A stretch of DNA of 64,000 nucleotides from Octopus vulgaris (Eukaryota): contig OX597835.1 in the NCBI GenBank assembly GCA_951406725.2, positions 43,524,001-43,588,000 on the forward strand. The letters are read 5' to 3'. The translations under genes and the position numbers were made by a program. This document shows, in pieces, positions 2,089 to 59,470 of the stretch. The stretch's first letter is position 1, and each line of letters starts with the position of its first letter. Below the pieces are notes generated by a model, which worked only from the letters and a program-made list of their open reading frames with translations, searched no databases and had not been told where the DNA came from.

Positions 2089-2098
<10 letters not shown>

Positions 2099-2610
2099 TA
2101 AATTAGAGATAAAACCACTATTAGGCAAATCATACAATGAAAAACTTAGCCAATACATAAGATTATTTCATTTATATTATTTAAATATATAACAAAATTA
2201 TTAAAAAAATATAATTAATATAACACTACGATCGTTTCATGGCTGTTAATTTCTTTAAATTTTCGAGTTACAGTCATTCATCAGGTGGTTTAAATATTTA
2301 ACTTGGCGAGGTTTATCGCCAAGTTAAATATTTAAACCACCTGATGAATGACTGTAACTCGAAAATTTAAAGAAATTAACAGCCATGAAACGATCGTAGT
2401 GTTATATTAATTATATTTTTTTAATAATTTTGTTATATATTTAAATAATATAAATGAAATAATCTTATGTATTGGCTAAGTTTTTCATTGTATGATTTGC
2501 CTAATAGTGGTTTTATCTCTAATTTAATATAATATAATATTTTACTATAAAATTGGATTCAATCCTAAATCTGATTTTTCCCTGTAAGTTTGGATTTATT
2601 CCCTAATATT

Positions 2611-2615
<5 letters not shown>
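2089..2615 (+). mobile_element. Palindromic Penelope-like pseudo-LTR with hammerhead motif, in (TA)n
   Basis: ~220-bp arms (2089-2309 / 2316-2536) that appear perfect, 6-nt loop, ~80-bp one-sided tail, (TA)n on both sides. Confidence 0.7.
2334..2402 (+). ncRNA. Putative type I hammerhead ribozyme (mirror copy on - strand at ~2223-2291)
   Basis: CTGATGA 2341-2347, stem II atgactgt...acagccat, GAAA 2387-2390, cgaTC site, imperfect stem I accac/gtagt. Confidence 0.6.
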
Positions 2616-2653
<38 letters not shown>

Positions 2654-3555
2654 ATTCATATATATTCCATAGGTGACGTTTAATTTCATTTCATTGACAG
2701 TTTTTCACGTTCGTGTTCTCATCTTTAACCGAAAGCCTTTGTTTATTTCTTTCACTTTATGGGTCATAAACTGAAAGATTACCCACATCTGGATTGCTCT
2801 ATTTCTATGACTTTATATTTAGAAAAGCTTCTTCATATCCTTGAGATATATATATTGTTGTCCTTTGAAACTGATATGCCAGTTAGAAACCGTTTCTTTC
2901 TTTACCTGATGATATTTTGGCAATATTTCTGGACAATTAGCTTTAAACTGCCAGAGTGGTGAATAATCATTATTCACTTCCGGTTTCTTCAGTGCTGTCA
3001 ACTAATACGCCACGCAGAGCTTTTTCTTGCCAACATCTCGACATATTTATTTTGTTATTCCATTTTCTCAGTACAATTATTAGTTCTCTTCATAATTTCT
3101 GTTCTTCTTTCTTCCATTCTCTTCACAACTGTCTGTTACTCTTGCTTCTATTCTATATTTTTTGGCTTCGTTGAAGACAAAAAGCAATTCTTTGTTTTGC
3201 TTAATACTTTTTCTTTAGCTTTTTCTATTAGATATTCCTTACGGTATGTTTTTGTAATCCTACAATAAATATTTCATAATGCTTTTTTACTTGCAAAAAA
3301 CCTCCTATCTACTTACATCTTCGTACTTAAAGTAAATATATTCTTTCTATATTCGTATTCAGGTGGTGTATTCCAAATATACTCATTATTTTCCATGTTT
3401 CTCTACCTAATATCACTAATTCGATTGCCACTCGAAAATTCTATATACTAAACCAAGGATACTGTAGTCATCTCTGCCCATAAAGTTATGGTTTTGGTGT
3501 ACCCCAGTCAGATGGTAGCACTTTAACCCTGTATCAATTTCTATTGTATAATATA

Positions 3556-4144: not shown

Positions 4145-4656
4145 GAGCACAATGGCCCAGTGGTTAGGGCAGCGGACTCGTGGTCGTAGGATCGCGGTTT
4201 CGATTCCCAGACTGGACATTGTGAGTATTTATTGAGTGAAAACACCTAAAGCTCCACAAGGCTCTGGCAGGGGATGGTGGCGATCCCTGCTGTACTCTTT
4301 CACCACAACTTTCTCTCACTGTTTCTTCCTGTTTCTGTTGTACCTGTATTTTTCAAAGGGCCAGTCTTGTCACACTCTGTGTCACGCTGAATCTCCCTGA
4401 GAACTATGTTAAGGGTACACATGTCTGTGGAGTGCTCAGCCACTTGCATGTTAATAAATGAGCTGCGACGTCACTGGTGCCAAGCTGTATCGGCCCCTTT
4501 GCCTTTCCCTTGGATAACATCGGTGGCATGGAGAGGGGAGGCCGGTATACGTGGCCGGTATATGCTGGTCTTCCATAAACAACCTTGCCCAGACCTGTGC
4601 CTTGGAGGGTAACTTTCTAGGTGCCATCCCATAGTCATTCATGACCGAAGGGGGCC
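4145..4656 (+). mobile_element. Chimeric tRNA-derived SINE (head of the 14118 family, middle of family D, tail of the 10920 family)
   Basis: tggcccagtggttagggcagcggactcg head; each segment matches another copy in the window. Confidence 0.8.
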
Positions 4657-4711
4657 ACAAATACACACACACATCCATTTACAGACGATGGGTTGGAGCA
4701 GCTGTAATCTA

Positions 4712-5256
4712 CGTGTGGCTTTATGGTTAGGGCATTCAGCCCACGATCGGAAGGTAGGGAGGGATTCTTGGTGACGCATTGTGCCATTGATCAAGACACT
4801 TTATTTCACGTTGCTCCATTTCACCCAGCTGACCAAAATACGAGAAGCATCTGTATTTGAAAGGGCCAGCCTTGTCACATTCTGTTCCACGCTGAATCTC
4901 CCTCAGAGCTACGTTAACCCTTTAGCATTTAAACCGGCCATATCCGGCCAAAAGTATTCTACCTGTTTTATGTTCACACTGGCCAGATCTGGTCTCTCAC
5001 ACCAACCCTACAATATCGTTCTAGAAATTAACAGCTACCTCATCAAAATCTCATAGCTACAACATTAATGCATAATTAGCTCAAAACAATGTGGATAAAA
5101 AAGCATTAATTTTGGCAGAATAATGCGAACACTAAAGGGTTAAGGGTACGTGGGTTTCTGAAGTGCTGAACCACATGCATTTTAGTTTCACAAGCAGTCT
5201 CTTCTGTTGATCGGATCAGCTGGAACCTTTCTTTGGCGTAACCGATGCTGTGCCAG
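4712..5256 (+). mobile_element. SINE family D interrupted by a piggyBac-like MITE
   Basis: Matches the reverse complement of 19382-19697 once 4918-5143 is removed. Confidence 0.75.
4918..5139. mobile_element. piggyBac-like MITE
   Basis: TTAA-ccctttag ... ctaaaggg-TTAA; the host SINE is continuous across a single TTAA. Confidence 0.85.
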
Positions 5257-5541
5257 TCTAGTCTATTAATCTGGATATAGTAAATACTTCATGCTGAGCA
5301 TCAGTTGGATAAAATACACTATTGGATATCTTAGCACTCTTATGGGCCTCTAGCCAGATCAATACACTGGGCCCTATAGAATTTATTTATTTATTGACGG
5401 CAAGCCGCAGCCTATGAGGCTGTGAGACCCCTGAGCAAGTACCCAATGTACTCATGCCTTAAGACAGCACTACTACTGACAAAATTTGAATTCGTTCCCT
5501 AATCAACGAAAATAATTACTGCATTAATATAAACAATCTTT

Positions 5542-5745
5542 AAGGTGGTGAGCTGGCAGAGATGTTCGCACGCCGGGCGAAATGCTTAGCGGTATTTCGT
5601 CTGCCGTTACGTTCTGAGTTCAAATTCCGCCAAGGTCGACTTTGCCTTTCATCCTTTGGGGGTCGATAAATTAATTACCAGTGAATTACTGGGGGTTGAT
5701 ATAATCGACTAGTCCCCTTCTCCTTGTGTCTATAGTAGAAAGGAT
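5542..5745 (+). mobile_element. SINE family B
   Basis: ggtgagctggcaga head, gagttcaaattcc B-box-like, gtcgactttgcctttcatcctt core. Confidence 0.85.
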
Positions 5746-5898
5746 ATTTGTAGAGGGCATTTTTTAGAAAATTATTTTCCTGTATTGTATGGGTTGGAAG
5801 CTTGCTTTGCAATCATATAACTCTGGGACCCTTGCGCAAGTGTCTTCTGCTAAAACCCCAGCTGACCAATGCTTTATGAGTAGACAGAAACTGTGTGG

Positions 5899-6135
5899 CA
5901 AGCTGGCAGAAACGTTAGGACGCTGGGTGAAATGCTTAGCAGTATTTCATCTGCTGTTACATTCTGAATTCAAATTCCGCCGAGGTCGACTTTGCCTTTC
6001 ATCCTTTCAGGGTCGATTAAATAAGTACCTGTTACGCACTGGGGGCGATGTAATCGACTTAATCTGTTTGTCAGTCCTTGTCTGTCCCCTCTGTGTGTAG
6101 CCCCTTGTGGGTAGTAAAGAAATAAAAAAAAGAAA
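5899..6135 (+). mobile_element. SINE family B with TSD
   Basis: Flanking direct repeat aaactgtgtgg at ~5888 and ~6138; A-rich tail. Confidence 0.85.
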
Positions 6136-6642
6136 GAAAAACTGTGTGGAAGTGCGAGGCTATAGTAGAAGACATTTGCCCAAGGTGCCGCGCAGTGGGA
6201 CTGAACCTGGAACCATGTGACTGCAAAGCGAGCTTCTTAACCGCATCCTTACTTGTTTGTTTGTTTGCTACATGCTCTTTCTTGACGGGGTGGGAGTCAT
6301 CCCAGATTAGGAATCCTAGGGACGCCATCATGCGTAGAATCAACCAAGTCCACCACTGCTCTCGATTGCTGGCTATCCTATGCCAGCTCCGCTGCATCAT
6401 CTAAGGTGGCGCCAATCCTTGGGAGATCTTCCCTAAAGACATTGCGCCATCTGGTGTCAGTTTCCGTCAACCAAATCCACTCACAAAGCTTTGGTCGGCC
6501 TGGGGCTATTGTAGAAGACACTTACCCAAGGTCCTATGCTGTGGGACTGAACCCAGACCTATTTAGTTGGGAAGGAAGCTTCTTACCACACAGCCATGCT
6601 TGTGCCTGTTCCATCAGTCAGCAGAAGTCCTGGGCACCAATA

Positions 6643-6830
6643 CAGTGGTCCTGATACATCTACGTAAGGTAATCTAGTTTTACCAAAATTGCTGTTGAAG
6701 TTTTAGGGTTAGGATAAATTTAAGGGTTAGTTTTTAGGGTTAGGGTTAGGGTTATATGAAGTCACAGTAGTTTTGATAAAACTAAATTACCTCCTCTTTA
6801 TATTGTTACGTAGATGCATCGGGACCTCTG
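6643..6830. mobile_element. Tc1/mariner-like MITE with central (TTAGGG)n
   Basis: TA-cagtggtcctgatacatctacgtaa ... ttacgtagatgcatcgggacctctg-TA, a second internal inverted repeat, ttagggttagggttaggg core. Confidence 0.7.
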
Positions 6831-7006
6831 TATTTAAGCAGTACCAAGTTACGGAGTGCCTCAAGAAGCGAGGGTTTCATACATTGACACCCTCACTTCT
6901 CAAACTTCTGATATAAAAGTAGTTATAATTGAAATAAACACTATAAAATAAAAATAATCCACCGCACTTAAATAATTATAAAATCAAATCAATAAAAATA
7001 CTCCTG

Positions 7007-7423
7007 GGATCTTTTCGGTTTGAACGGCAGTTTTTTCTAGCGGTGTCATATGAAATTGTCACCCATAATCATGACCCTAGTATCGATCTATTGCATTTCA
7101 ATCTGTTTTAGGGTTAGTGTTAGGGGTGGGGGAAGGGTTTCTTTTTTTCTTCACAAATGTAAATAAACCCAATCTGTTTCTTAAACGAGGGACATATTCA
7201 TACAGCACAGAATGTTTTTTACCTCAATGGACATCATTGATTGATTGAAATTGCAGAAATCGAAGAAAAAAAACAACAAATATCTTACAAACTATAGAAT
7301 TTTCTCAATGAAGCCAAGAGAAAAAGATGTTTTATAAACACATTCTACCAGTATACGAAGTTCAAAAGTTTTTAGTTAACTAGAAATTATGTTAAAAAAC
7401 TGCCATTCAAACCGAAAAGATCC
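7007..7423. mobile_element. MITE family C (Merlin-like), short form
   Basis: TIRs ggatcttttcggtttgaacggcagtttt / aaaactgccattcaaaccgaaaagatcc; no TSD seen at this copy. Confidence 0.85.
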
Positions 7424-7527
7424 CTCAAAACTGTATCTAAAAACCAGGGTATTTTAATCGCATTATTCTATCAACAAAAGCCGAAAGATCTATTTCCGGT
7501 TAGCATGCAGGAAACAAAAAGTGAAAA

Positions 7528-7574
<47 letters not shown>

Positions 7575-7816
7575 ACACACATGATCCATTGGTGTTGTTA
7601 TATCTATGAACATTCTTTTAATTTCCAACAGATGTCTACTTAGCCATCATTAGATTTCCCTATAATTTTTCTTAGTTGATGGAAGATTTTATGAATTGCT
7701 TGACGGCTGTTTGCCTTAATTTAATTTGTCTGAAAACTATTCTGGGCGTGGAGGGATACACACACACACACACAAAAATGACCCATTAAAAATTTTTGTT
7801 AATGATTGTAGATGCT

Positions 7817-8292
7817 TTGATGAAGAAGGTGGAGGAGGAGGAGGAGAAGAGGAAGAAGGTGATGATGGTGGTGATGATGGAGATGATGGAGATGATGGAA
7901 ATGGAGATGATGATGATGATGGAGATGATGATGATGATGATGAAGATGATGATGAAGAGGAGGAAGATGATGATGATGAAAAGGAGGAGGAGGAGGAGGA
8001 GGAAGAAGAAGAGGAGGAGGAGGAGGAAGAAGAAGAAGAAGAGGAGGAGGAAGAAGAAGAAGAAGAGGGGAGGGGGAGGAATAATAAGAAGAAGAGAGGA
8101 GGAGGAGGGGGAAGAAGAGGAGGAGAAGGGGGAGGAAGAGGAAGATGAAGATGAAGTAGAAGAAGAGGAGGAGGAAGAAGAAGAAGAAGAGGAGGAGGAA
8201 GAAGAAGAAGTAGAAGAAGAGGAGGAGGAAGAAGTAAAAGAAGAGGAGGAGGAAGAAGAGGAAGAAGAGGAGGAGGAAAAAGATGATGAAGA
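7817..8292. repeat. (GAT)/(GAG)/(GAA) trinucleotide low-complexity tract
   Basis: Visible directly in the sequence. Confidence 0.95.
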
Positions 8293-8524
8293 ACCAAAAT
8301 CCTGGCTGAAGAATTTGGAACTCTTCAAGTACGTTATTTCGTAACTAGTAGGAATACGGAAATAACATGAAGAATGCTGAGCTACTTTAACCGTCAGAAC
8401 ACATTAATAATGGTTGCAGCCATTTAGATGTGTTTTTATATTAAGAAAATAAATCTCCCAAATTTCGGATGTTTTTCTAAATATAGTTTAACTCGTAAAC
8501 ATCCGGGAAGGTTCATTCTACCAT

Positions 8525-9013
8525 TTTCTCTCTCTCTTTCTCTCTCTTTTTCTTTCCCTCTATCAAACTCACTCCTTCTCTCTCTCTCTCACTTTCACTT
8601 TTCTCTTTCTCTCTCTTTATTGATCTTTCTCCTCCCTATATCTCTCTTTTTCTCTTTCCTTCTCCCTCTTTCTCTTCTATTCCTCTCTCTCCATCCTCCT
8701 TTCTCCCGATCCTCCCTCCCCCCTCTCTCTATCTCTCCTGATTCCCTTCCCTCTTTCTCCCAATCCTCACTCCCTCTCTCTCCTTTCCCCTTCCTTCCCT
8801 CTCTCTCTCTCTTTTTCCTACCTCTGTCCCTCTTTTCTCTCGCTCTCTAGTCCTCCCTGTCCCACCTTCCCCCCGTTTCCTTTCCTCACTTTCTCCCTCC
8901 CTCTCTCTCCTTCTCTGCTTCCTTCCTGCTCACTCTCCCTCCTCTTCTCCCTGCCTTCCTAACTCTCTCTTCTTGTATCTCCCCATCTCTCCCCACGTCT
9001 TCTCTCTCTCTCT
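8525..9013. repeat. CT-rich polypyrimidine tract
   Basis: Visible directly in the sequence. Confidence 0.9.
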
Positions 9014-9326
9014 TTAATAAATGCGTATCAACAATTGTGGTGCACCTGAGCACTGTATACAATAATTTCATTATATTTATATTATATGATATTGTCAGGC
9101 ATAGCATGCCATATCAAACTGAAATACTAAAACCCAGTTAATATCAGTGGCCTCAATAAAGAACTAATCTATATTGACCAATCATAAACACCTGTAAATC
9201 TCGATTGACCAATCGAAAGCATCTTTAAATATTTTCTATGGCAAATCTCAAAGTCTATCATACATTAGAATTAGTTTCACCATTGCTATTATTTTACGAC
9301 AGAATTATTTGAAAGAAAGTTGATTT

Positions 9327-9731
9327 GGATCTTTTTGGTTTGAACGGCAGTTTTTAACATAATTTCTAGGTAACAAAAAATTTTAAACTTCCTATACTGG
9401 TAGAATGTGTTTATAAAACATATTTTTCTCTTGGCTTTCTTGAGAAAATTCTGTAGTTTGTAACATATTTCATCTTTAATTTCTTGCATTTCGGCAATTT
9501 TAACCAATCACTGGCATCTATTGAGTTAAAAAGCATTCTGTGTCGTATGAATATGTCCTCGTTTAAGAAACAGATTGGGTTTATTTACATTTGTGAAGAA
9601 AAAAGATACCCTCCCCCCACCCCTAACCCTACCTAACCCTAAATCTAAAAGAGATTGAAATGCAATAGATCGATACTAGGGTCATAATTATGGGTGACAA
9701 TTTCATATGATCCCGCTAGAAAAAATGGCAG
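9327..9731. mobile_element. MITE family C, opposite orientation, one end truncated
   Basis: Left TIR present, ccctaaccct core, ends at aaaaatggcagtt. Confidence 0.8.
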
Positions 9732-10142
9732 TTAAGGGTACACATGTCTGTGGAGTGCTGAGCGGGGCTGTTCTGTTGATTGGATGAACTGGAACAATCA
9801 TTGTCGTAAGCGACGGAGTCCCAGTACCAATTAATGTCGCTAGGACTGCATTATCTAATATGTCTTTCCTTCAGGCATGTGCCGTCAGTAATTACTCTGG
9901 GTAGGCTGTTGGTGACACAGAAAATTAAGCGAAACACCACACACGACTGAGTTGAAGGCAGATTTACTGCTGCCTTCATAGCACGTAAAGAAAACGTTGT
10001 TGTAGGAATGCATGCAGCATGTGTACTACAGCAGTATTATGCATAGCTTAAATACTGAGACTGAAAAGCAGGGTTGAATTATGCCTACCTAATATACAAA
10101 ACAATAAAATATTTTGCATTTTATGCGTAGTAATCAGAGTAA

Positions 10143-10550
10143 CTCTTTACTCTCTTTTACTTGTTTCAGTCATTTGACTGCGGCCATGCTGGAGCACCGC
10201 CTTTGGTCAAGCAACTAGACCCTGGGACTTATTCTTTTGTAAGCCCAGTACTTATTCTATCGGTCTCTTTTGCCGAACCGCTAAGTAACGGGGGCATAAA
10301 CACACCAGCATGGGTTGTCAAGCAATGCTAGGGGGACAAACACAGACACACAAACACACACACGCATATATACATATGCATATATACGATGGGCTTCTTT
10401 CAGTTTCCATCTACCAAATCCACTCACAAGGCTTTGGTCGGCCCAAGGCTATAGTAGAAGACACTTGCCCAAGGTGCCACGCAGTAGGACTGAACCCAGA
10501 ACCATGTGGTTGGTAAACAAGCTACTTACCACACAGCCACTCCTGCGCCT
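10143..10550 (-). mobile_element. SINE family A, full length
   Basis: Complete reverse complement ending cactcctgcgcct. Confidence 0.92.
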
Positions 10551-10919
10551 TCATAATTTTATTGAATTAGGTACATATTTTGCCATAACAGAAAAATGTT
10601 ACTATTGATCTATTTTATTCAAGGTAGGCACATCCCTGCTTTCCTTGTTCAAGATGTTGCTGTTTAGTTTTAGGTCAACCTTGATGTAGCACAACTACTG
10701 ATCAGTGGCGTTCCAGTTATGACCATCAAGCCTTGTGTTCAGAAATACTGCATCTAGGATTACATTATTTAACATGATTTGCCTTCCTTGATGGTGTTCA
10801 GCCCTCGGTCCGGTCAGCCATGATCTGCAGACCAATGAGCAAAGTGTTCCAGCCATGATCATAATTTCACTATTTTATAACGGTAAACTGTATTTTAACC
10901 CTTATTTAATATTTTAGCT

Positions 10920-25682: not shown

Positions 25683-25890
25683 TCAAAATGTGACCTTGTG
25701 TGTACCGTTGGCGATTTTTTTCCCCTCTGTCTTCTCTTCTCTGGATCTTTCCTTCTCCTATGTTTCCGACGAAGAGCTCCGCTCGAAACGTTAAACTCTC
25801 CTTCTTTCCTGAGCGTCCAATAATACTATATTTGTTCCACGTCCTCGCGTTGTTGTCTTTTTTTTGTGCTTTCTTGTTTGGATTAACTTT
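25682..25890 (+). mobile_element. Family E: ~210-bp hammerhead-containing element in (TA)n (Penelope pLTR or retrozyme-like)
   Basis: Homologous to copies at 39143, 40030 and 41480; all TA-flanked. Confidence 0.8.
25762..25796 (+). ncRNA. Minimal type I hammerhead ribozyme (CCGA core variant)
   Basis: gttt-CCGACGA-a-gagc tcc gctc-GAAA-cg-TT-aaac. Confidence 0.6.
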
Positions 25891-25901
25891 ATATATATAT
25901 A

Positions 25902-34290: not shown

Positions 34291-34556
34291 TATAAAAATA
34301 TAAAAATTTATAAATTTAAAATTTAAATATAAAATTATCAAAATTTATAAATATAAATTTTAAAATTTCAAATTAAATAATTTAAATTTAAATTTAATAT
34401 TTTATATATATTTTGTATATTATATTAATTATATTTATTTTTTGTTATTTATGTTTTGGTTTTTGTCTATCACTGTTTGAGTTGCCTAATAGTGGTTTTG
34501 TCTCTAATTTAATTTATATATATATTAGCAGACACGCGTATTATTATATATATATA

Positions 34557-37935: not shown

Positions 37936-38075
37936 AACTTCTAAACGAGAGTGAGACAGCATGTTTTTTGTCTATCACCTTAACTTCTTGGAGATTTTAG
38001 ATATAATTACACTAATGTGTCCATCTGGTTCTAATTTAATTAAATTCTATGTTTTTGTGCAGCTGAAGATTGCTC

Positions 38076-39017
38076 GGATCTTTTCGGTTTGAACGGCAGA
38101 TTTTTAAAATGATTTCTTTGTAACTAAACACTTTTAAACTTCGTATACTGGTAGAATGTGTTACATAAAACATCTTTTTCTCTTGGCTTTCTTGAGAAAA
38201 TTCTGTAGTTTGTAAGCTATTTGTTGTTTAATGTCTTGCATTTCGGCAATTTCAACCAATCAATGACGTCTATTGAGGTGAATGCAATTTCTCCGGATCT
38301 TTGTCAACAACAATTATTTGCGGTGTCATATGAATTTGTCACTGTTATTTATGAGAAAAAAGATACTCTGTGGCCATAAACCGAGGGGTCACTCGTAAAC
38401 AGAGCTGGATAACAAAACCGTTCCCTCTTTAGTGTCCACTCATAATTATGGCCTTAGTATCGATCTATTGCATTTCAATCTGTTTTAGGGTTAGGGTTAG
38501 AGTTAAGGTTAGGGTTAGAGTTAGGGTTAAAGTTAGGGGTGGGGGGAAGGGTATCTTTTTTTCTTCAGAAATGTAAATAAACCCAATCTGTTTCTTAAAC
38601 GAATATATAATATGTAATGTGTGCAACAGAGAGGGAAATTAAAACTGCATATGTTGTGAACTTAGAATATGTGTTTATTAATAAAAGTTTAATAATGATA
38701 ATCTTTTATTCATACGAACGTAACTGATATGAAATATGTCATAAATAACAGGGACATTTTCTTATGACACTGCAAATAATTGTTGTTGACAAAGATTCGG
38801 AGAAATTGTATTCACCTCAATAAACGTCATTGATGGGTTGATATTGCCGAAATGCAAGAAATTAAACAACAAATAGCTTACAAACTACAGAATTTTCTCA
38901 AGAAAGCCAAGAGAAAAAGATGTTTTATGTAACACATTCTACCAGTATACGAAGTTTAGAAGTGTTTAGTTACAAAGAAATTATTTTAAAAATCTGCCGG
39001 CCAAAGCGAAAAGATCC
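38076..39017. mobile_element. MITE family C, long-TIR form (~270-bp arms)
   Basis: Perfect 8-bp TSD gattgctc (38068-38075, 39018-39025); TTAGGG-like array at ~38485-38537. Confidence 0.93.
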
Positions 39018-39149
39018 GATTGCTCTGCATTTTAAACTGATGTAATGATTGTATTGTTCAATTAAATGGAGTTGCATGAAACGATCGTACTGCATTACCT
39101 CTGGATTTCCTTTACATACATACATATATATATATATATATAATGTATA

Positions 39150-39188
39150 TAGTTTCTGACGAAGAGCTTCGCTCGAAACATAAGACTA
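39150..39188 (+). ncRNA. Type I hammerhead ribozyme in a family E copy (39143-39300)
   Basis: tagttt-CTGACGA-a-gagc ttc gctc-GAAA-ca-TA-agacta; 6-bp stem I. Confidence 0.65.
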
Positions 39189-40101
39189 CCTTCCTTTCCT
39201 TCCCTGAGCGTCTGCTAATACTTTGCTTGTACCCCGTCCTCGCGTTGTTTTTTTTTTTTCTTGTGTTTTCTTTCTTCGTTTTTCTTTTTGTATTAACTAA
39301 TATAAATATATATATATATATATGTCTCTGTGTGTGTCTGTATGTATGCATGTGTTATACACACACACACATTTGTATGTATGCAAGCACGTATGAATGA
39401 ATGTGTGTGAGCGAATATGTGTGTGTATGTATGTATGTATCCATATACTTCACCTATATGTGTATCAAATGCGGAAAGGCACAAATAAAAGATTTTATAG
39501 GTGGGTGTATAAATGAAGTGACCGGCACGCGACAGGTACGATATATAAAACTAACAGGAGTCACATAAAAGGAACAATAAAACAGAAAACAACGTCGAGC
39601 CTGTTCTGTAGGAAGGTGAGAGGAAAATTTTGTAACTTTATAGATAACAACAACAGCCAGAAAAGTGAGTGTGTATATATACGCGCCTTTGTGTGTGTGT
39701 GGTATGTATATGTCTGCGTGCGCACACATACATACAAACAGACACACACACATTCACACATGATATGTTTTTGATGTACTGAAATTATCTTTGTTCTTAG
39801 AGAAGGTAAAACAAACGCCTGCTGGCAATTTTGACCAATTTCACATGAAAAAAGTAAATGTGGTAAGATTTCTTTCCAACTGCATGGTTCCGGGTTCAGT
39901 TCCACTGCATGGCACCTTGGGTAGGTACCTTTTTACTTATAGGGTCGGCCTGACTAAAGTCTCGTGAGTAGATATTTGGTAGACAGAAACTGAAAGAAGC
40001 CCGTCGGATATATATATATATATATATTGTGATCTCTTGAGCACCACCAGCTCAAATATTTTCTCCTCTGTCTTCCCTCCTTGGGATCTTTCCTTCTCCT
40101 T

Positions 40102-40136
40102 GTTTCCGACGAAGAGCTCCGCTCGAAACGTTAAAC
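40102..40136 (+). ncRNA. Hammerhead motif (CCGA variant) in a family E copy (40030-40255), after the (TA)n of a SINE A 5' half
   Basis: gttt-CCGACGA-agagctccgctc-GAAAcgTT-aaac. Confidence 0.6.
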
Positions 40137-40249
40137 CCTCCTTCCCTTCTTTCCTGAGCGTCAATAATACTTTAATTGTTCCACGTCCTGCGTCGCTGTG
40201 TTTTTTTCCCCTTTTTTCTCTTTTTTTCTGTGTTTTCTTGTTTGGATTA

Positions 40250-40304
<55 letters not shown>

Positions 40305-41236: not shown

Positions 41237-41240
<4 letters not shown>

Positions 41241-41436
41241 GGTCTCGGGTTGATTCGGGGTTAACCACAGTAAATAAGGTACTCAATACACAGCAGAGTA
41301 AAATTAATTTATTATATAGAAGGAGCTTCTACAGGACTAGAACTGTTTCATTCAAGAGAAATCATCAGGAAGCTTCCTGATGATTTCTCTTGAATGAAAC
41401 AGTTCTAGTCCTGTAGAAGCTCCTTCTATATAATAA

Positions 41437-41438
<2 letters not shown>
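41237..41438 (-). mobile_element. Palindromic Penelope-like element with hammerhead core, in (TA)n
   Basis: Perfect 66-bp arms 41307-41372 / 41373-41438, no spacer, ~70-bp one-sided tail; CTGATGA 41377-41383, GAAA 41396-41399. Confidence 0.7.
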
Positions 41439-41484
<46 letters not shown>

Positions 41485-41557
41485 AATGTGACCGCGTGTG
41501 TACCATTGGCGATTTTTTTCCTCCGTCTTCCCTTCTTTGGATCTTTCCTTTTCCTAT

Positions 41558-41592
41558 GTTTCTGACGAAGAGCTCCGCTCGAAACGTTAAAT
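41558..41592 (+). ncRNA. Minimal type I hammerhead ribozyme in a family E copy (41480-41700)
   Basis: gttt-CTGACGA-a-gagc tcc gctc-GAAA-cg-TT-aaat. Confidence 0.68.
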
Positions 41593-41694
41593 CCCCCTTC
41601 TTTCCTTCCTTCCTGAGCGTCCAATGATACTATTCTTGTTCCACATCATCGCGTTGTGTTTTCTCTTTGTGTTTTCATGTTTGGATTAACTTTG

Positions 41695-41748
<54 letters not shown>

Positions 41749-42971: not shown

Positions 42972-44445
42972 TTGCTCGGAGTTTGGTTCGGTCCGGACTT
43001 CCAAATGAAGAAGAACTAGGGCGAAATAACGACTAGGGTGGCCACTCTCACCCAGCAATGGGCTGAGAGAAAGCTATCCCTAAAAGGTCGGGCGGAGGTG
43101 GCGAACGCGTACATCGCATCCGTCATCGAGTATCGTCTGACCGTCGTGCCTTGTCCTGACCCTACCATCACCAAACTGGAATGTATACTCTTCCGCTTCC
43201 TGTGGAAGGGAAACGTTCCGATGGTTAGGCGATCCATTTGCTGCCAACACCCGCTAAATGGAGGGCTGGGCATGCCGTGGTTGATGATGCGCAGACATGC
43301 GCTGAGACTGCGACTTCTCCGGTGCTTCATAGACGACGGTGAACAGGTGTGGTTGCCTTTTGTGCGACGCGCTTTCCCGCAGCTCGTCTCCTTGGCCGAA
43401 CTACAATCGTGGATCAAACAGAGACCAAGGCTAGGCGAATGTCACCGCGAGTGTCGCGTTGCTCTCAAGCAACTCTGCCGCCCGGGACCAAACTTGTGCG
43501 ACTTCATCACAACAAAGACTTTCTATAGAGGATTAGTGGAGGGGAGGTGCGACGACGTTCTCGGGCAGAATCTGGGCATCGACGAGGAACACCTGACCCG
43601 CTTGTTCAGGACAACTTTCGGGCGGGACCTATGGACAATTACCAAAGATCCCTGGCCTGGCAGTGCTATCGAGAAGCATTACCTGTTTGGGATAAGCTCT
43701 ACAGGCACGGTTCGAGACACACTAGACCGACTTGCTCGAGATGCGGTCAGAGCGACGAAACCGTTCTGCACGCACTCGTGCAATGTCTAACCATTTCGGC
43801 TGCTGTCAGGTGTGGGACGAGTCCGGCTGTCGGCCGAGTCTATCGTGAAAATTGCACCGCTCCCTTCCCTCAACCGGGAAGGCAAGGCAGTTTTCATCGT
43901 ACTGGTGGCTATGGTGAAAGAATGTGTATGGTGGACTCGAGCGAAAGGATTAGAGACAAACACTTACCCCTCTGGCCAATCGCTCATCAACTTTTTCAAG
44001 TACCACTTGAAAAGGAAGGTGAGAATGGAAAGGCAGGTTTTGTCTCGTGAAAGTTTCAAAAAAAGGTGGGTGAATGTAGCAAAGATGGTGCGTGCGAGTG
44101 ACGAAACCACTTTGAGCATGATCCTGTAAATCGTAAAAGAGAAAGAGAGAACACTTTGCTCTCATGTGTTTATTTCCTCCCTGCCTGAGGTTACCGTGGT
44201 CTTTTCTGTAGGCTTTTCTTTCCACGGATAAACCTAATCTTGTTTGTTCCTTAAAAAAAAAAAATTTCTTTCTGTGATACACGACCCCTTTTGATCGCTT
44301 TTTTTCCCCCGATCCCTTTTGATCGAAATTTTACATTTGTTTCCTTTTTTTCTTTTTCCTTTTCCATCTTCGAAAAGAACCTCTTCAACAACTCTCTGTC
44401 CCATGTGTCTTCTCTGGTTCTGCTTATTCCATCTCGTATCTTTGT
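42972..44445 (+). mobile_element. Tx1/L1-clade LINE 3' fragment (ORF2 C-terminus with Cys/His motif, T-rich 3' UTR)
   Basis: LLGVWFG..W..RKLSLKGR..FRFLWKG..GGLGMP; CSRCGQSDETVLHALVQC; stop codon and frameshifts; ORF ends at 44129. Confidence 0.88.
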
Positions 44446-56970: not shown

Positions 56971-57223
56971 ACATTATCCCCAATCTCTGTACATAGCCAA
57001 CTCTCTAAAATATAACCCGCCTTTTTTTGTCTTTATAACCTTCCTCTCTCTAATACTCATGTCTCTCTCTCTCCCTCTCTCTCCCTCTCTCTAAGCCTTT
57101 TATATATTCTATCATTACACAACTCTTTCCCTTTCTCTTTATAATCTTTCTTTCTCTCTTTCTCAATAACTCTCCCTCTCTATAAACCTCCTCTCTTTAT
57201 ATCACTCCCTTTATGTAATTCTC

Positions 57224-59470
57224 TGTGGGATGACGTCAGCAGCTGGGGAGCTGACCGGAACTTGGGGCTGACCGGAAGAGGAAGGGGCAGGAGTGACGCG
57301 CGCTCCGAAGATCCGGCAGTGCTTAAGTCCGTCCTAGCGAAAGAGGACAAGATTAGAAAGGCCACCAGTTCCTACATTTTGGTGGACGAAACTGTAGTGC
57401 CAGCCAACGGAGAAGTTCGGACTAATTGCGAAGCCACCGGAGTCGATGGAAGGGGGAGCCGCGCTGGGGCTGAAGCTGCGAAGAGATAGATCAGGTGAGT
57501 TGGTGTTCCGGAGAGGGAATGAAATCCCAGAGCTGAGTTCCAGCGACAGCAAGAGAGAGCTGTTCTCGGTGTGTGGGAAGTTGGTCGGTCACTACCCGAT
57601 CGCTGGATGGCTGCGTTACAATGTGCAGTTACCCCAAGTGACGAGCGGAGACGGAGAGTTGGGGCGACAAGGTGGGAGGAAGGGACGGTAGCGATGATGC
57701 TGGAAATCCTAGAAAGGACGAAAGCGGAAGACCCGGTCAGGGGGAACTGGTATGTGCCGAAGACGGAATGCGGGACCGTCTGGTGTGATGCTAGCAGTAT
57801 AGCGATAGGGGTTGTGTTGGAGATCGAAGGCGCTGCGGTGGAGGACGCGGCCTGGCTTCGGAAAGCAGACGACTTCAACTACATCAATGTCGCTGAATTA
57901 GACGCGGGGTGAACTTGGCCCTGAAATGGGGGCTGCGCTCAATTGAAATCCGGACAGATTCAGCCACTGTGCTTGGCTGGGTAAGATCGGTGATCACCGG
58001 TGAAAGGAGAGTTCGGACGAAAGGTGCCAGGGACATGTTGGTGAAGCGCCGTCTAGGAGTTCTTGGAGAATTGATTGCCGAGTTCGGACTGAAGCTGAAC
58101 GTGGTTTTCATGCCTTCGGAGAAAAACAGGGCAGACGCACTGACCAGGGTGAAAAAGGCGTGGTTGGAGAAACCGGAGGAGGCAGAGAAAGGGATAGCTG
58201 CGGTGTGTCGGTTGGATGACTCCGAACTGAAGAGACTGAAGATGCTATGTATCACTTGGGTGTGGACAGGAACCTGTATCTGGCGAAGAAAATTGATGCT
58301 GACGTTACTAGAAGCACCCAGAAAGTGGCCGGGAGCTACGAAAGGTGTCAGTCCATTGACCCTGCTCCGTGTGGGCATGAGCAGGGAAACCTTTCGGTGG
58401 AGCACAACTGGAAAAGGCTAGCTGTGGATGTGACGCGCTACCGTGAGGGAATGTATCTCTCCATGGTCGACTGCGGGCCGGGCCGGCTGGCCATTTGGAG
58501 GGAGTTGAGAACGGGCATTGCTGACGAGATTGCACAGATCTTGAACGGGATATTTTTAGAGAGAGGTCCCGTGGAAGAACTGCTAATGGACAACGGGGCG
58601 GCGTTTCTTTCGGAAGCATTGAGGGATATGCTCGACCGGTGGAAGGTGCGTCGCTTGTTCAGAGCAGCGTATAGGCCGAGCGGTAACGGGATCGTAGAGA
58701 GGCACCATCGGACAGTCAAGGCCACAGCGGAAAGAGGGCACATTTCGCCGCTTGAAGCAGTTTTTTGGTACAACATGTCTCCCCGATCCGGACAAGCTGA
58801 AGAATCTGTGCTGCACAGAGCTGTATTTAGATATGAATGGAGGCACCCGAGAAAAGCGCCGAAGGGCCACGAGGAAGAGAAGGGATCCGCTTGCATGAAA
58901 ATAGGGGAGGAAGTCTGGGTTAAGCCACCGAAGGCGCATTGTTCGTCTCAATGGAGCAGAGGAACGGTGACGGCGGTCAATTCCAGAAACAACGTCTCCG
59001 TGGTTGGAATGCCGCGACATGTCTTGGACCTTCGCAGGATTGTCGCTTCGTCGGACGACGATTGTGGAGAGGGGGAGAACGAGGTGCCTAGCCTGAGAAG
59101 ATCTCGACGCGCGAGGCGCCCTCCCGGTTTGATGGTGGACTACGACGTGGAGTAGAGAGAATGTGATCTTTAAGATCAGGGTGGCGTGAGGGATGACGTC
59201 AGCAGCTGGGGAGCTGATCGGAAATTGGGGATGACTGGAAGAGGAAGGGACAGGAGTGACGCGTGCGCAGGCAGGGCAGCATTGGGCCTTTTTTCAATCG
59301 AGGTAGCCGAGGAGTCGGACGTGTGAGCTCGTTGTTAAGGTAGGGGAAAAGCAGCTGCTATTTCTAGTGTTCGGGTCGGGCCGCGCGGAAGGGTGCATTA
59401 CCACTGGGGAGGTCTCCGTCAACGAAGAGAAGGTAGGTGTCCTTATTTCAAATCTCCCGCATACAACACA
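57224..59470 (+). mobile_element. Ty3/Gypsy LTR retrotransposon, internally deleted
   Basis: TG...CA ends, TSD ttctc (57219-57223, 59471-59475), partial 5' LTR 57224-57300, 3' LTR 59187-59470, purine-rich tract before the 3' LTR. Confidence 0.9.
57301..59155 (+). pseudogene. Frameshifted pol remnant: RNase H plus integrase
   Basis: WCDASS..INVAELDA..IRTDS (RNase H); HLG..CQ, LAVDVT, LLMDNGAAF, GNGIVERHHRT (DDE integrase). Confidence 0.9.

Follow-up and report, generated by a model that had tools for sequence, protein, structure and literature searches.

Positions 2089 to 2613 of the window, a 64-kb stretch of Octopus vulgaris DNA that is of animal type and rich in SINE-like repeats and microsatellites, hold a long palindrome with a tail on one side. 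The left arm (2089-2309, minus strand) and the right arm (2316-2536, plus strand) are each 221 nt long and 100% complementary, with no mismatch, so that the identity judged by eye in a first-pass annotation was borne out by computation. Between the arms lie the six centre bases GGTTTA (2310-2315). The right arm continues into an unpaired tail (plus strand) that starts at 2537 and ends at about 2606 to 2613, where it blurs into (TA)n; the tail is one-sided, as had been noticed, but measures 70 to 77 bp instead of the roughly 80 bp first proposed. The presence of (TA)n on both sides was also confirmed, at 2058-2098 and 2606-2665. The left tract proper (2058-2093), preceded by a dispersed SINE-like repeat that ends A-rich, is the likely target site, with the arm boundary overlapping it by a few AT bases, while the right tract proper (2614-2650) gives way to unique sequence. 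Inside the (TA)n at the main palindrome, no target-site duplication was readable.

When the whole window was scanned for hairpin palindromes (arms of at least 25, loops of 0 to 30, low-complexity arms removed), only two were kept, the main palindrome and one at 41307-41438, and the main palindrome is therefore far beyond chance. It is confirmed as real. Neither the arm nor the tail contains an ORF, and an ATG at 2348, in what we parse below as stem II, leads to a stop after 20 codons. The tail itself folds into a weak stem-loop (z -1.3).

Each arm carries a hammerhead motif. The pattern CTGATGA-N10-40-GAAACGATCGT gave two matches, one per arm (2341-2397 on the plus strand and 2228-2284 on the minus strand), versus none in 100 shuffles, and a stem-checked scan of the window returned four sites, two of them in the arms of the main palindrome, versus 0 to 1 per shuffle in 10 shuffles. 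The right-arm motif (2338-2401, plus strand) parses into stem I (CAC/GUG, 2338-2340/2399-2401), CUGAUGA (2341-2347), stem II (2348-2355/2379-2386, seven of eight pairs) with a 23-nt loop II (2356-2378), GAAA (2387-2390), and a palindromic CGAUCG (2391-2396) closed by a one-pair helix III. The cut triplet is GUA, and the cut is predicted after A2398. The mirror copy (2224-2287, minus strand) was found by both the pattern match and the stem-checked scan. Judged by the core CUGANGA, GAAA, and UH together with helices I to III, each arm can be classed as a putative minimal type I hammerhead. The earlier claim of a hammerhead on each strand thus holds in that each arm has the motif, but the 'GAAAcgaTC' given for it was out of register, with the triplet being GUA; the GAUC cut site proposed there fails the stem I check and was rejected.

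Among the listed family variants, which comprise only those above 5% of depth, all five substitutions within the 64-nt motif lie in loop II (P ~0.004 if substitutions were uniform), as does the one listed single-base gap. In Rfam nothing reached the gathering score, and hammerhead models were absent from the hits even with the cutoff relaxed to E<=10; miRNA matches below threshold at the palindrome were due only to the hairpin and were set aside. As a monomer the hammerhead folds weakly (-1.1 kcal/mol; z +0.4 to +0.7, no better than shuffles), and an 8-bp helix III formed by a dimer is predicted at -10 kcal/mol. In the parent element, the hammerhead would act as a dimer, paired through helix III, which is self-complementary.

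To place the palindrome in a family, we used public runs. Part of 1900-2900 is contained in 20 of the 24 listed runs, and the contigs of four of the 24 (X1, X3, X4, and X10, the last possibly an RNA run), aligned at 90% likeness, supplied the family evidence, with 849, 2723, 2582, and 161 contigs, respectively, aligning to the stretch. Summed depth in X1, which does not convert into a copy number, was 87,000 to 162,000 over the arm end and tail, the deepest-covered part of the family, 4,500 to 10,800 over the right-arm hammerhead, and 16 over the unique flank. Such a 3'-weighted depth is expected from 5'-truncated retrotransposition. In 8, 22, 26, and 4 contigs of X1, X3, X4, and X10, respectively, the arm end passed into (TA)n, and loose ends at 2528/2536 were seen in all four runs, so that the outer end of the left arm at the locus coincides with a family terminus that recurs at (TA)n. 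The unique right flank was covered by X1 alone, by one contig of depth 16 that spans 2662-2790 without a difference, and by no contig from X3, X4, or X10; X1 may represent the sample of origin. Within the window, an older copy of the arm end (34449-34526, 82% identical) ends where the family terminus lies, ahead of (TA)n, and has no tail. The 3'-heavy depth, the ends running into (TA)n, and the copy at 34449-34526 together reveal dispersed 5'-truncated copies in (TA)n targets, and the family, which is repetitive, is probably young. Elsewhere, the hammerhead pattern had no locus in the viral collection and the arm-end pattern none in viral contigs. Eight hammerhead-pattern loci in metagenomes (five) and prokaryote genomes (three) were rejected as chance, all eight matching only a 15-21-nt part of the pattern without the family flanks.

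The same contigs contain head-to-head joints, which bear on how the two arms came together. Of 23 joints, 15 were listed, and 14 of these join a left to a right arm at points other than the one at the locus, the remaining one being an internal variant. The longer arm among the 14 listed inversion joints was the left in nine and the right in five, with differences of up to 224 nt; the difference exceeded 90 nt in eight and came to 4, 12, and 13 nt in others. Any one joint is represented in a run by a single short contig, and these contigs do not extend to the outer end of the longer arm. Six of the 14 include all six centre bases together with 3 to 9 letters beyond them, and a contig from X10 aligns to 2224-2315 and then continues further. 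Because these joints in other copies and the X10 contig continue through the centre, the six bases (minus strand) are native to the left, untailed arm, which makes this arm 227 nt long versus 221 for the right. The 6-nt loop of the first-pass annotation does correspond to six bases between the arms, but they are native element sequence of the left arm. Both arms also have in common a rare variant (2456 G/2169 C), where more than 98% of the family depth reads T/A, and were therefore derived from one template. Two independent insertions were ruled out by the identity of the arms and the presence of the rare variant in both.

We compared this anatomy with known elements, and the Penelope-like identity proposed earlier was upheld: the inverted truncated copy, direct copy, one-sided tail, hammerhead, and (TA)n all match the insertion signature in the available portions of PMC8557442, PMC3846280, and PMC4209133. 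As described there, Penelope-like insertions consist of an inverted truncated copy plus a direct pLTR of about 200 bp, with a tail of 30 to 40 bp at one end only (PMC8557442), and head-to-head junctions form palindromes (PMC3846280); (TA)n serves as target in Hydra and Naiad, Neptune shows a microsatellite bias, and the hammerhead lies about 100 to 200 nt from the 3' end (PMC8557442, PMC3846280). The locus resembles these insertion units in its inversion, one-sided tail, (TA)n, and hammerhead position, with the inverted 5'-truncated copy present head to head with a direct pLTR-like arm. It differs from them in that the main copy is without an ORF, its tail of 70 to 77 bp (68 bp in a second element of the window) is about twice the published 30 to 40 bp, and no short motif matched the consensus file: 0 of 12 short window motifs were found in the file of Craig et al., where line breaks and cut runs may hide matches. 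The loop 3 motif was likewise absent from the searchable part of the Cervera supplement.

The sense-strand hammerhead of the pLTR-like arm, with motif and stems present, agrees in layout with the table in File S2 of PMC8557442, as far as that table is available. Minimal hammerheads of metazoan Penelope-like elements have a long helix II and a palindromic loop 3 and occur as opposite-strand pairs 100 to 700 bp apart (PMC4209133, in part). The main motif is like them in being type I, with a helix II of 7 to 8 bp, a short helix I, and a palindromic loop 3 suited to a dimer, but unlike them in its long loop II (23 nt) and a helix I of only 3 bp (5 with a bulge). The Naiad clade, in contrast, has no canonical hammerhead and an N-terminal endonuclease, and the 3' end of Naiad_Obim shows no resemblance to the main element by eye; the hammerhead of Hydra-1_Obim differs in sequence from the main motif (available rows of PMC8557442 File S2). 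PAc, the Poseidon element of Anolis, nicks and extends both target strands, and two internal RT start sites bracket its tail (PMC11167929, in part). The main element is like PAc in having a tail at the insertion end and an AT-rich target, whereas the PAc ORF starts in stem II and the ATG of the main element at 2348 soon closes. Inverted structures receive no treatment in the available text of the PAc paper. Recently active Penelope-like families have been reported in Octopus vulgaris in the accessible part of PMC13282606.

No RVT_1 or GIY-YIG domain was found in a Pfam scan of 150 ORFs of the window, a set made up of 149 of the 261 filtered ORFs, the other 112 all being shorter, and one added ORF. 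The lack of an RT or endonuclease ORF is expected in a stump of 520 bp. The right flank was searched at 2650-3528 in one minus-strand frame, with X at stops, and gave no hits, and there is therefore no sign of an adjoining Penelope ORF in that frame. The flank (2650-3530, minus strand) is unique, AT-rich, and resembles decayed coding DNA. On balance, we regard the Penelope-like identity of the main element as highly probable, and by analogy with the published units it likely belongs to the endonuclease-positive members of the group.

How the two arms were joined is a separate question. The native-order strand, reading arm, centre, arm, is the top strand and starts at the untailed end, so the tail cannot come from a fold-back of the top strand. 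With the centre bases native sequence of the untailed arm, the tail cannot be a copy made from that strand, and two primed cDNAs appear to fit better. We hypothesize that the locus is a 5'-truncated Penelope-like insertion with its two hammerhead-bearing ends head to head in (TA)n, each target strand having primed a cDNA, and we hold this full reading to be somewhat favored; once the Penelope-like identity is granted, the two-priming route becomes fairly probable. Both target strands would be nicked and each would prime a cDNA on the element RNA; the two cDNAs, one per target end and per internal RT start site, would then be joined at their 3' ends, and the product would be a dead stump without an ORF.

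The first-pass annotation had instead proposed a recent insertion made by self-primed fold-back. Recency agrees with a family that is probably young; a single fold-back is less well supported, with the native-order strand starting at the untailed end and the arms of other copies very unequal. According to this explanation, one cDNA, or in the proposal of Arkhipova et al. an antisense template, would fold back at its 3' end to prime synthesis of its own complement, after which an endonuclease removes the tail at one end of the hairpin. In print, such palindromes have been attributed to self-priming (PMC3846280, in the portion available) and the tail to endonuclease resolution (PMC8557442, likewise), and a fold-back would account for a centre that is near-symmetric (227 versus 221 nt), for identical arms with a common rare variant, and for those copies whose arms differ by only 4, 12, or 13 nt. 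However, the centre belongs to the untailed arm, so that the first strand must lose its own tail; native pairing at the centre amounts to no more than 2 bp, and the native continuations that were seen give a 7-nt loop, not a 6-nt one. The excess of more than 90 nt in eight of the 14 listed joints also speaks against it, even if a fold-back with a large loop, or later deletion in unstable palindromes, could give unequal arms, and a loop is absent altogether from the second element. We consider one self-primed fold-back rather unlikely, but it is the most serious of the alternatives to two priming events.

Another possibility concerns the parent and would fit either joining route: it may have been a short, non-autonomous, retrozyme-like RNA of about 310 nt that carried a hammerhead but lacked an ORF and depended on a Penelope protein acting in trans for its mobility. 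The absence of an ORF from arm and tail would suit such a parent, as would the six listed joints that end 3 to 9 letters past the centre, as if at a template start, and a preprint (10.64898/2026.07.22.740005, seen in its available part) derives animal retrozymes from Penelope pLTRs. Joints that stop at most 9 letters past the centre do hint at a template RNA beginning at that point; the joint list (15 of 23), however, is biased toward short inserts, and an internal pLTR promoter of an autonomous element gives the same predicted 5' end. The main element is like the animal non-LTR retrozymes of the same preprint in being short, non-coding, equipped with a type I hammerhead, and Penelope-related; unlike them, it forms no head-to-tail tandem array but a single inverted pair, and no head-to-tail tandem hammerhead units were found at the locus. 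A retrozyme-like parent is improbable on this evidence.

An assembly or library artefact, in which a fold-back chimeric long read or polishing mirrored one arm, would likewise produce arms with zero mismatches and a common rare variant, and among the contigs listed none bridges the exact centre or spans the whole stretch; one contig from X3 crosses 2316 with two letters omitted. Against a mirrored read, the mirror ends exactly at the recurrent family terminus, the flanks differ and are not mirrored, the tail is one-sided only, three independent DNA runs contain joints of the head-to-head type, and the layout is repeated in a second family at 41239-41438. An artefact is thus very improbable, although polishing may have erased a few differences between the arms and inflated their identity. 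Least probable of all is a MITE or fold-back DNA transposon, with the arms as terminal inverted repeats and the TA flanks as target duplications: long inverted repeats, TA flanks, and the lack of coding capacity would suit it, but the tail is one-sided, the centres vary by hundreds of bases among copies, the depth is 3'-heavy, the copy at 34449-34526 has a single arm, the hammerhead core is conserved, and symmetric termini with a constant interior are absent from both locus and family.

The first-pass annotation suggested that long dsRNA could form, and a read-through transcript is indeed predicted to form a 221-bp duplex. The further suggestion of a ribozyme core whichever strand is transcribed proved misleading: the sense hammerhead is second in order on both strands of a palindrome transcript, and the duplex through the whole palindrome is predicted at about -340 kcal/mol versus -1.1 kcal/mol for the monomer hammerhead. 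On either strand, the hammerhead is predicted by this folding to be trapped in the duplex. In our proposed scheme of two priming events, read-through RNA from the stump would form this duplex and bury the hammerhead.

The main element is ordinary in kind, its architecture having already been published. PMC8557442 (available text) counts the origin of inverted insertions among the questions still open for Penelope-like elements. If two priming events are the correct account, twin priming at two internal RT start sites would explain in one stroke why one copy is inverted, why only one end is tailed, and why the arms differ in length, and the centres of stumps would record, across the genome, a step of the Penelope cycle listed as unresolved by Craig et al. 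2021 (PMC8557442, same text). A large family with variable centres could separate fold-back from twin priming by which arm is longer, which arm has the tail, and which arm owns the centre. As a tentative generalization, to which we give somewhat less than even chances, head-to-head Penelope palindromes may be twin-primed as a rule, with the ORF-less dsRNA hairpins arising from unit-length transcripts that start just upstream of the hammerhead. A search by title gave no twin-priming account of Penelope-like elements, with Evgen'ev and Arkhipova 2005 and Arkhipova 2006 lying outside its scope, and we make no claim that the idea is unpublished. Perfect hairpins of this type may give rise to long dsRNA and may also cause errors in assemblies.

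Several other elements of the window carry hammerhead-like motifs. The second palindrome (41239-41438, minus strand) is unrelated in sequence to the main one. Its perfect 66-bp arms meet at a 4-nt self-complementary centre with no loop, both contain a hammerhead, and the element has a tail of 68 bp on one side and is flanked by (TA)n at both ends; no other copy is present in the window. By eye, its hammerhead layout resembles the Hydra-clade rows in the available part of PMC8557442 File S2, and its tail has a 10-nt word in common with the 3' end of Hydra-2_Amil. The same 8-nt AT-rich word occurs near both tail starts (2537-2545 and 41298-41306), which may reflect chance or a start-site feature. 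A third family has a short minimal-hammerhead motif and ends in (TA)n; its four copies (41481-41700, 25683-25897, 40059-40261, and 39152-39270) are 77 to 85% identical to the first, and a core base is changed in two of them. A diverged hammerhead at 39037-39095 agrees with the main motif over its 15-nt 3' half, has a damaged 5' core, and adjoins an inverted-repeat element. At 38074-38354 and 38739-39019, inverted repeats of 281 bp, 94% complementary, surround (TTAGGG)n (38485-38538) in a MITE-like arrangement. Decayed coding remnants in the window comprise an LTR-retrotransposon pol (57145-59152; rve, DUF7047, and a weak RNase H-like match) and a LINE fragment (43020-44126; zf-RVT).
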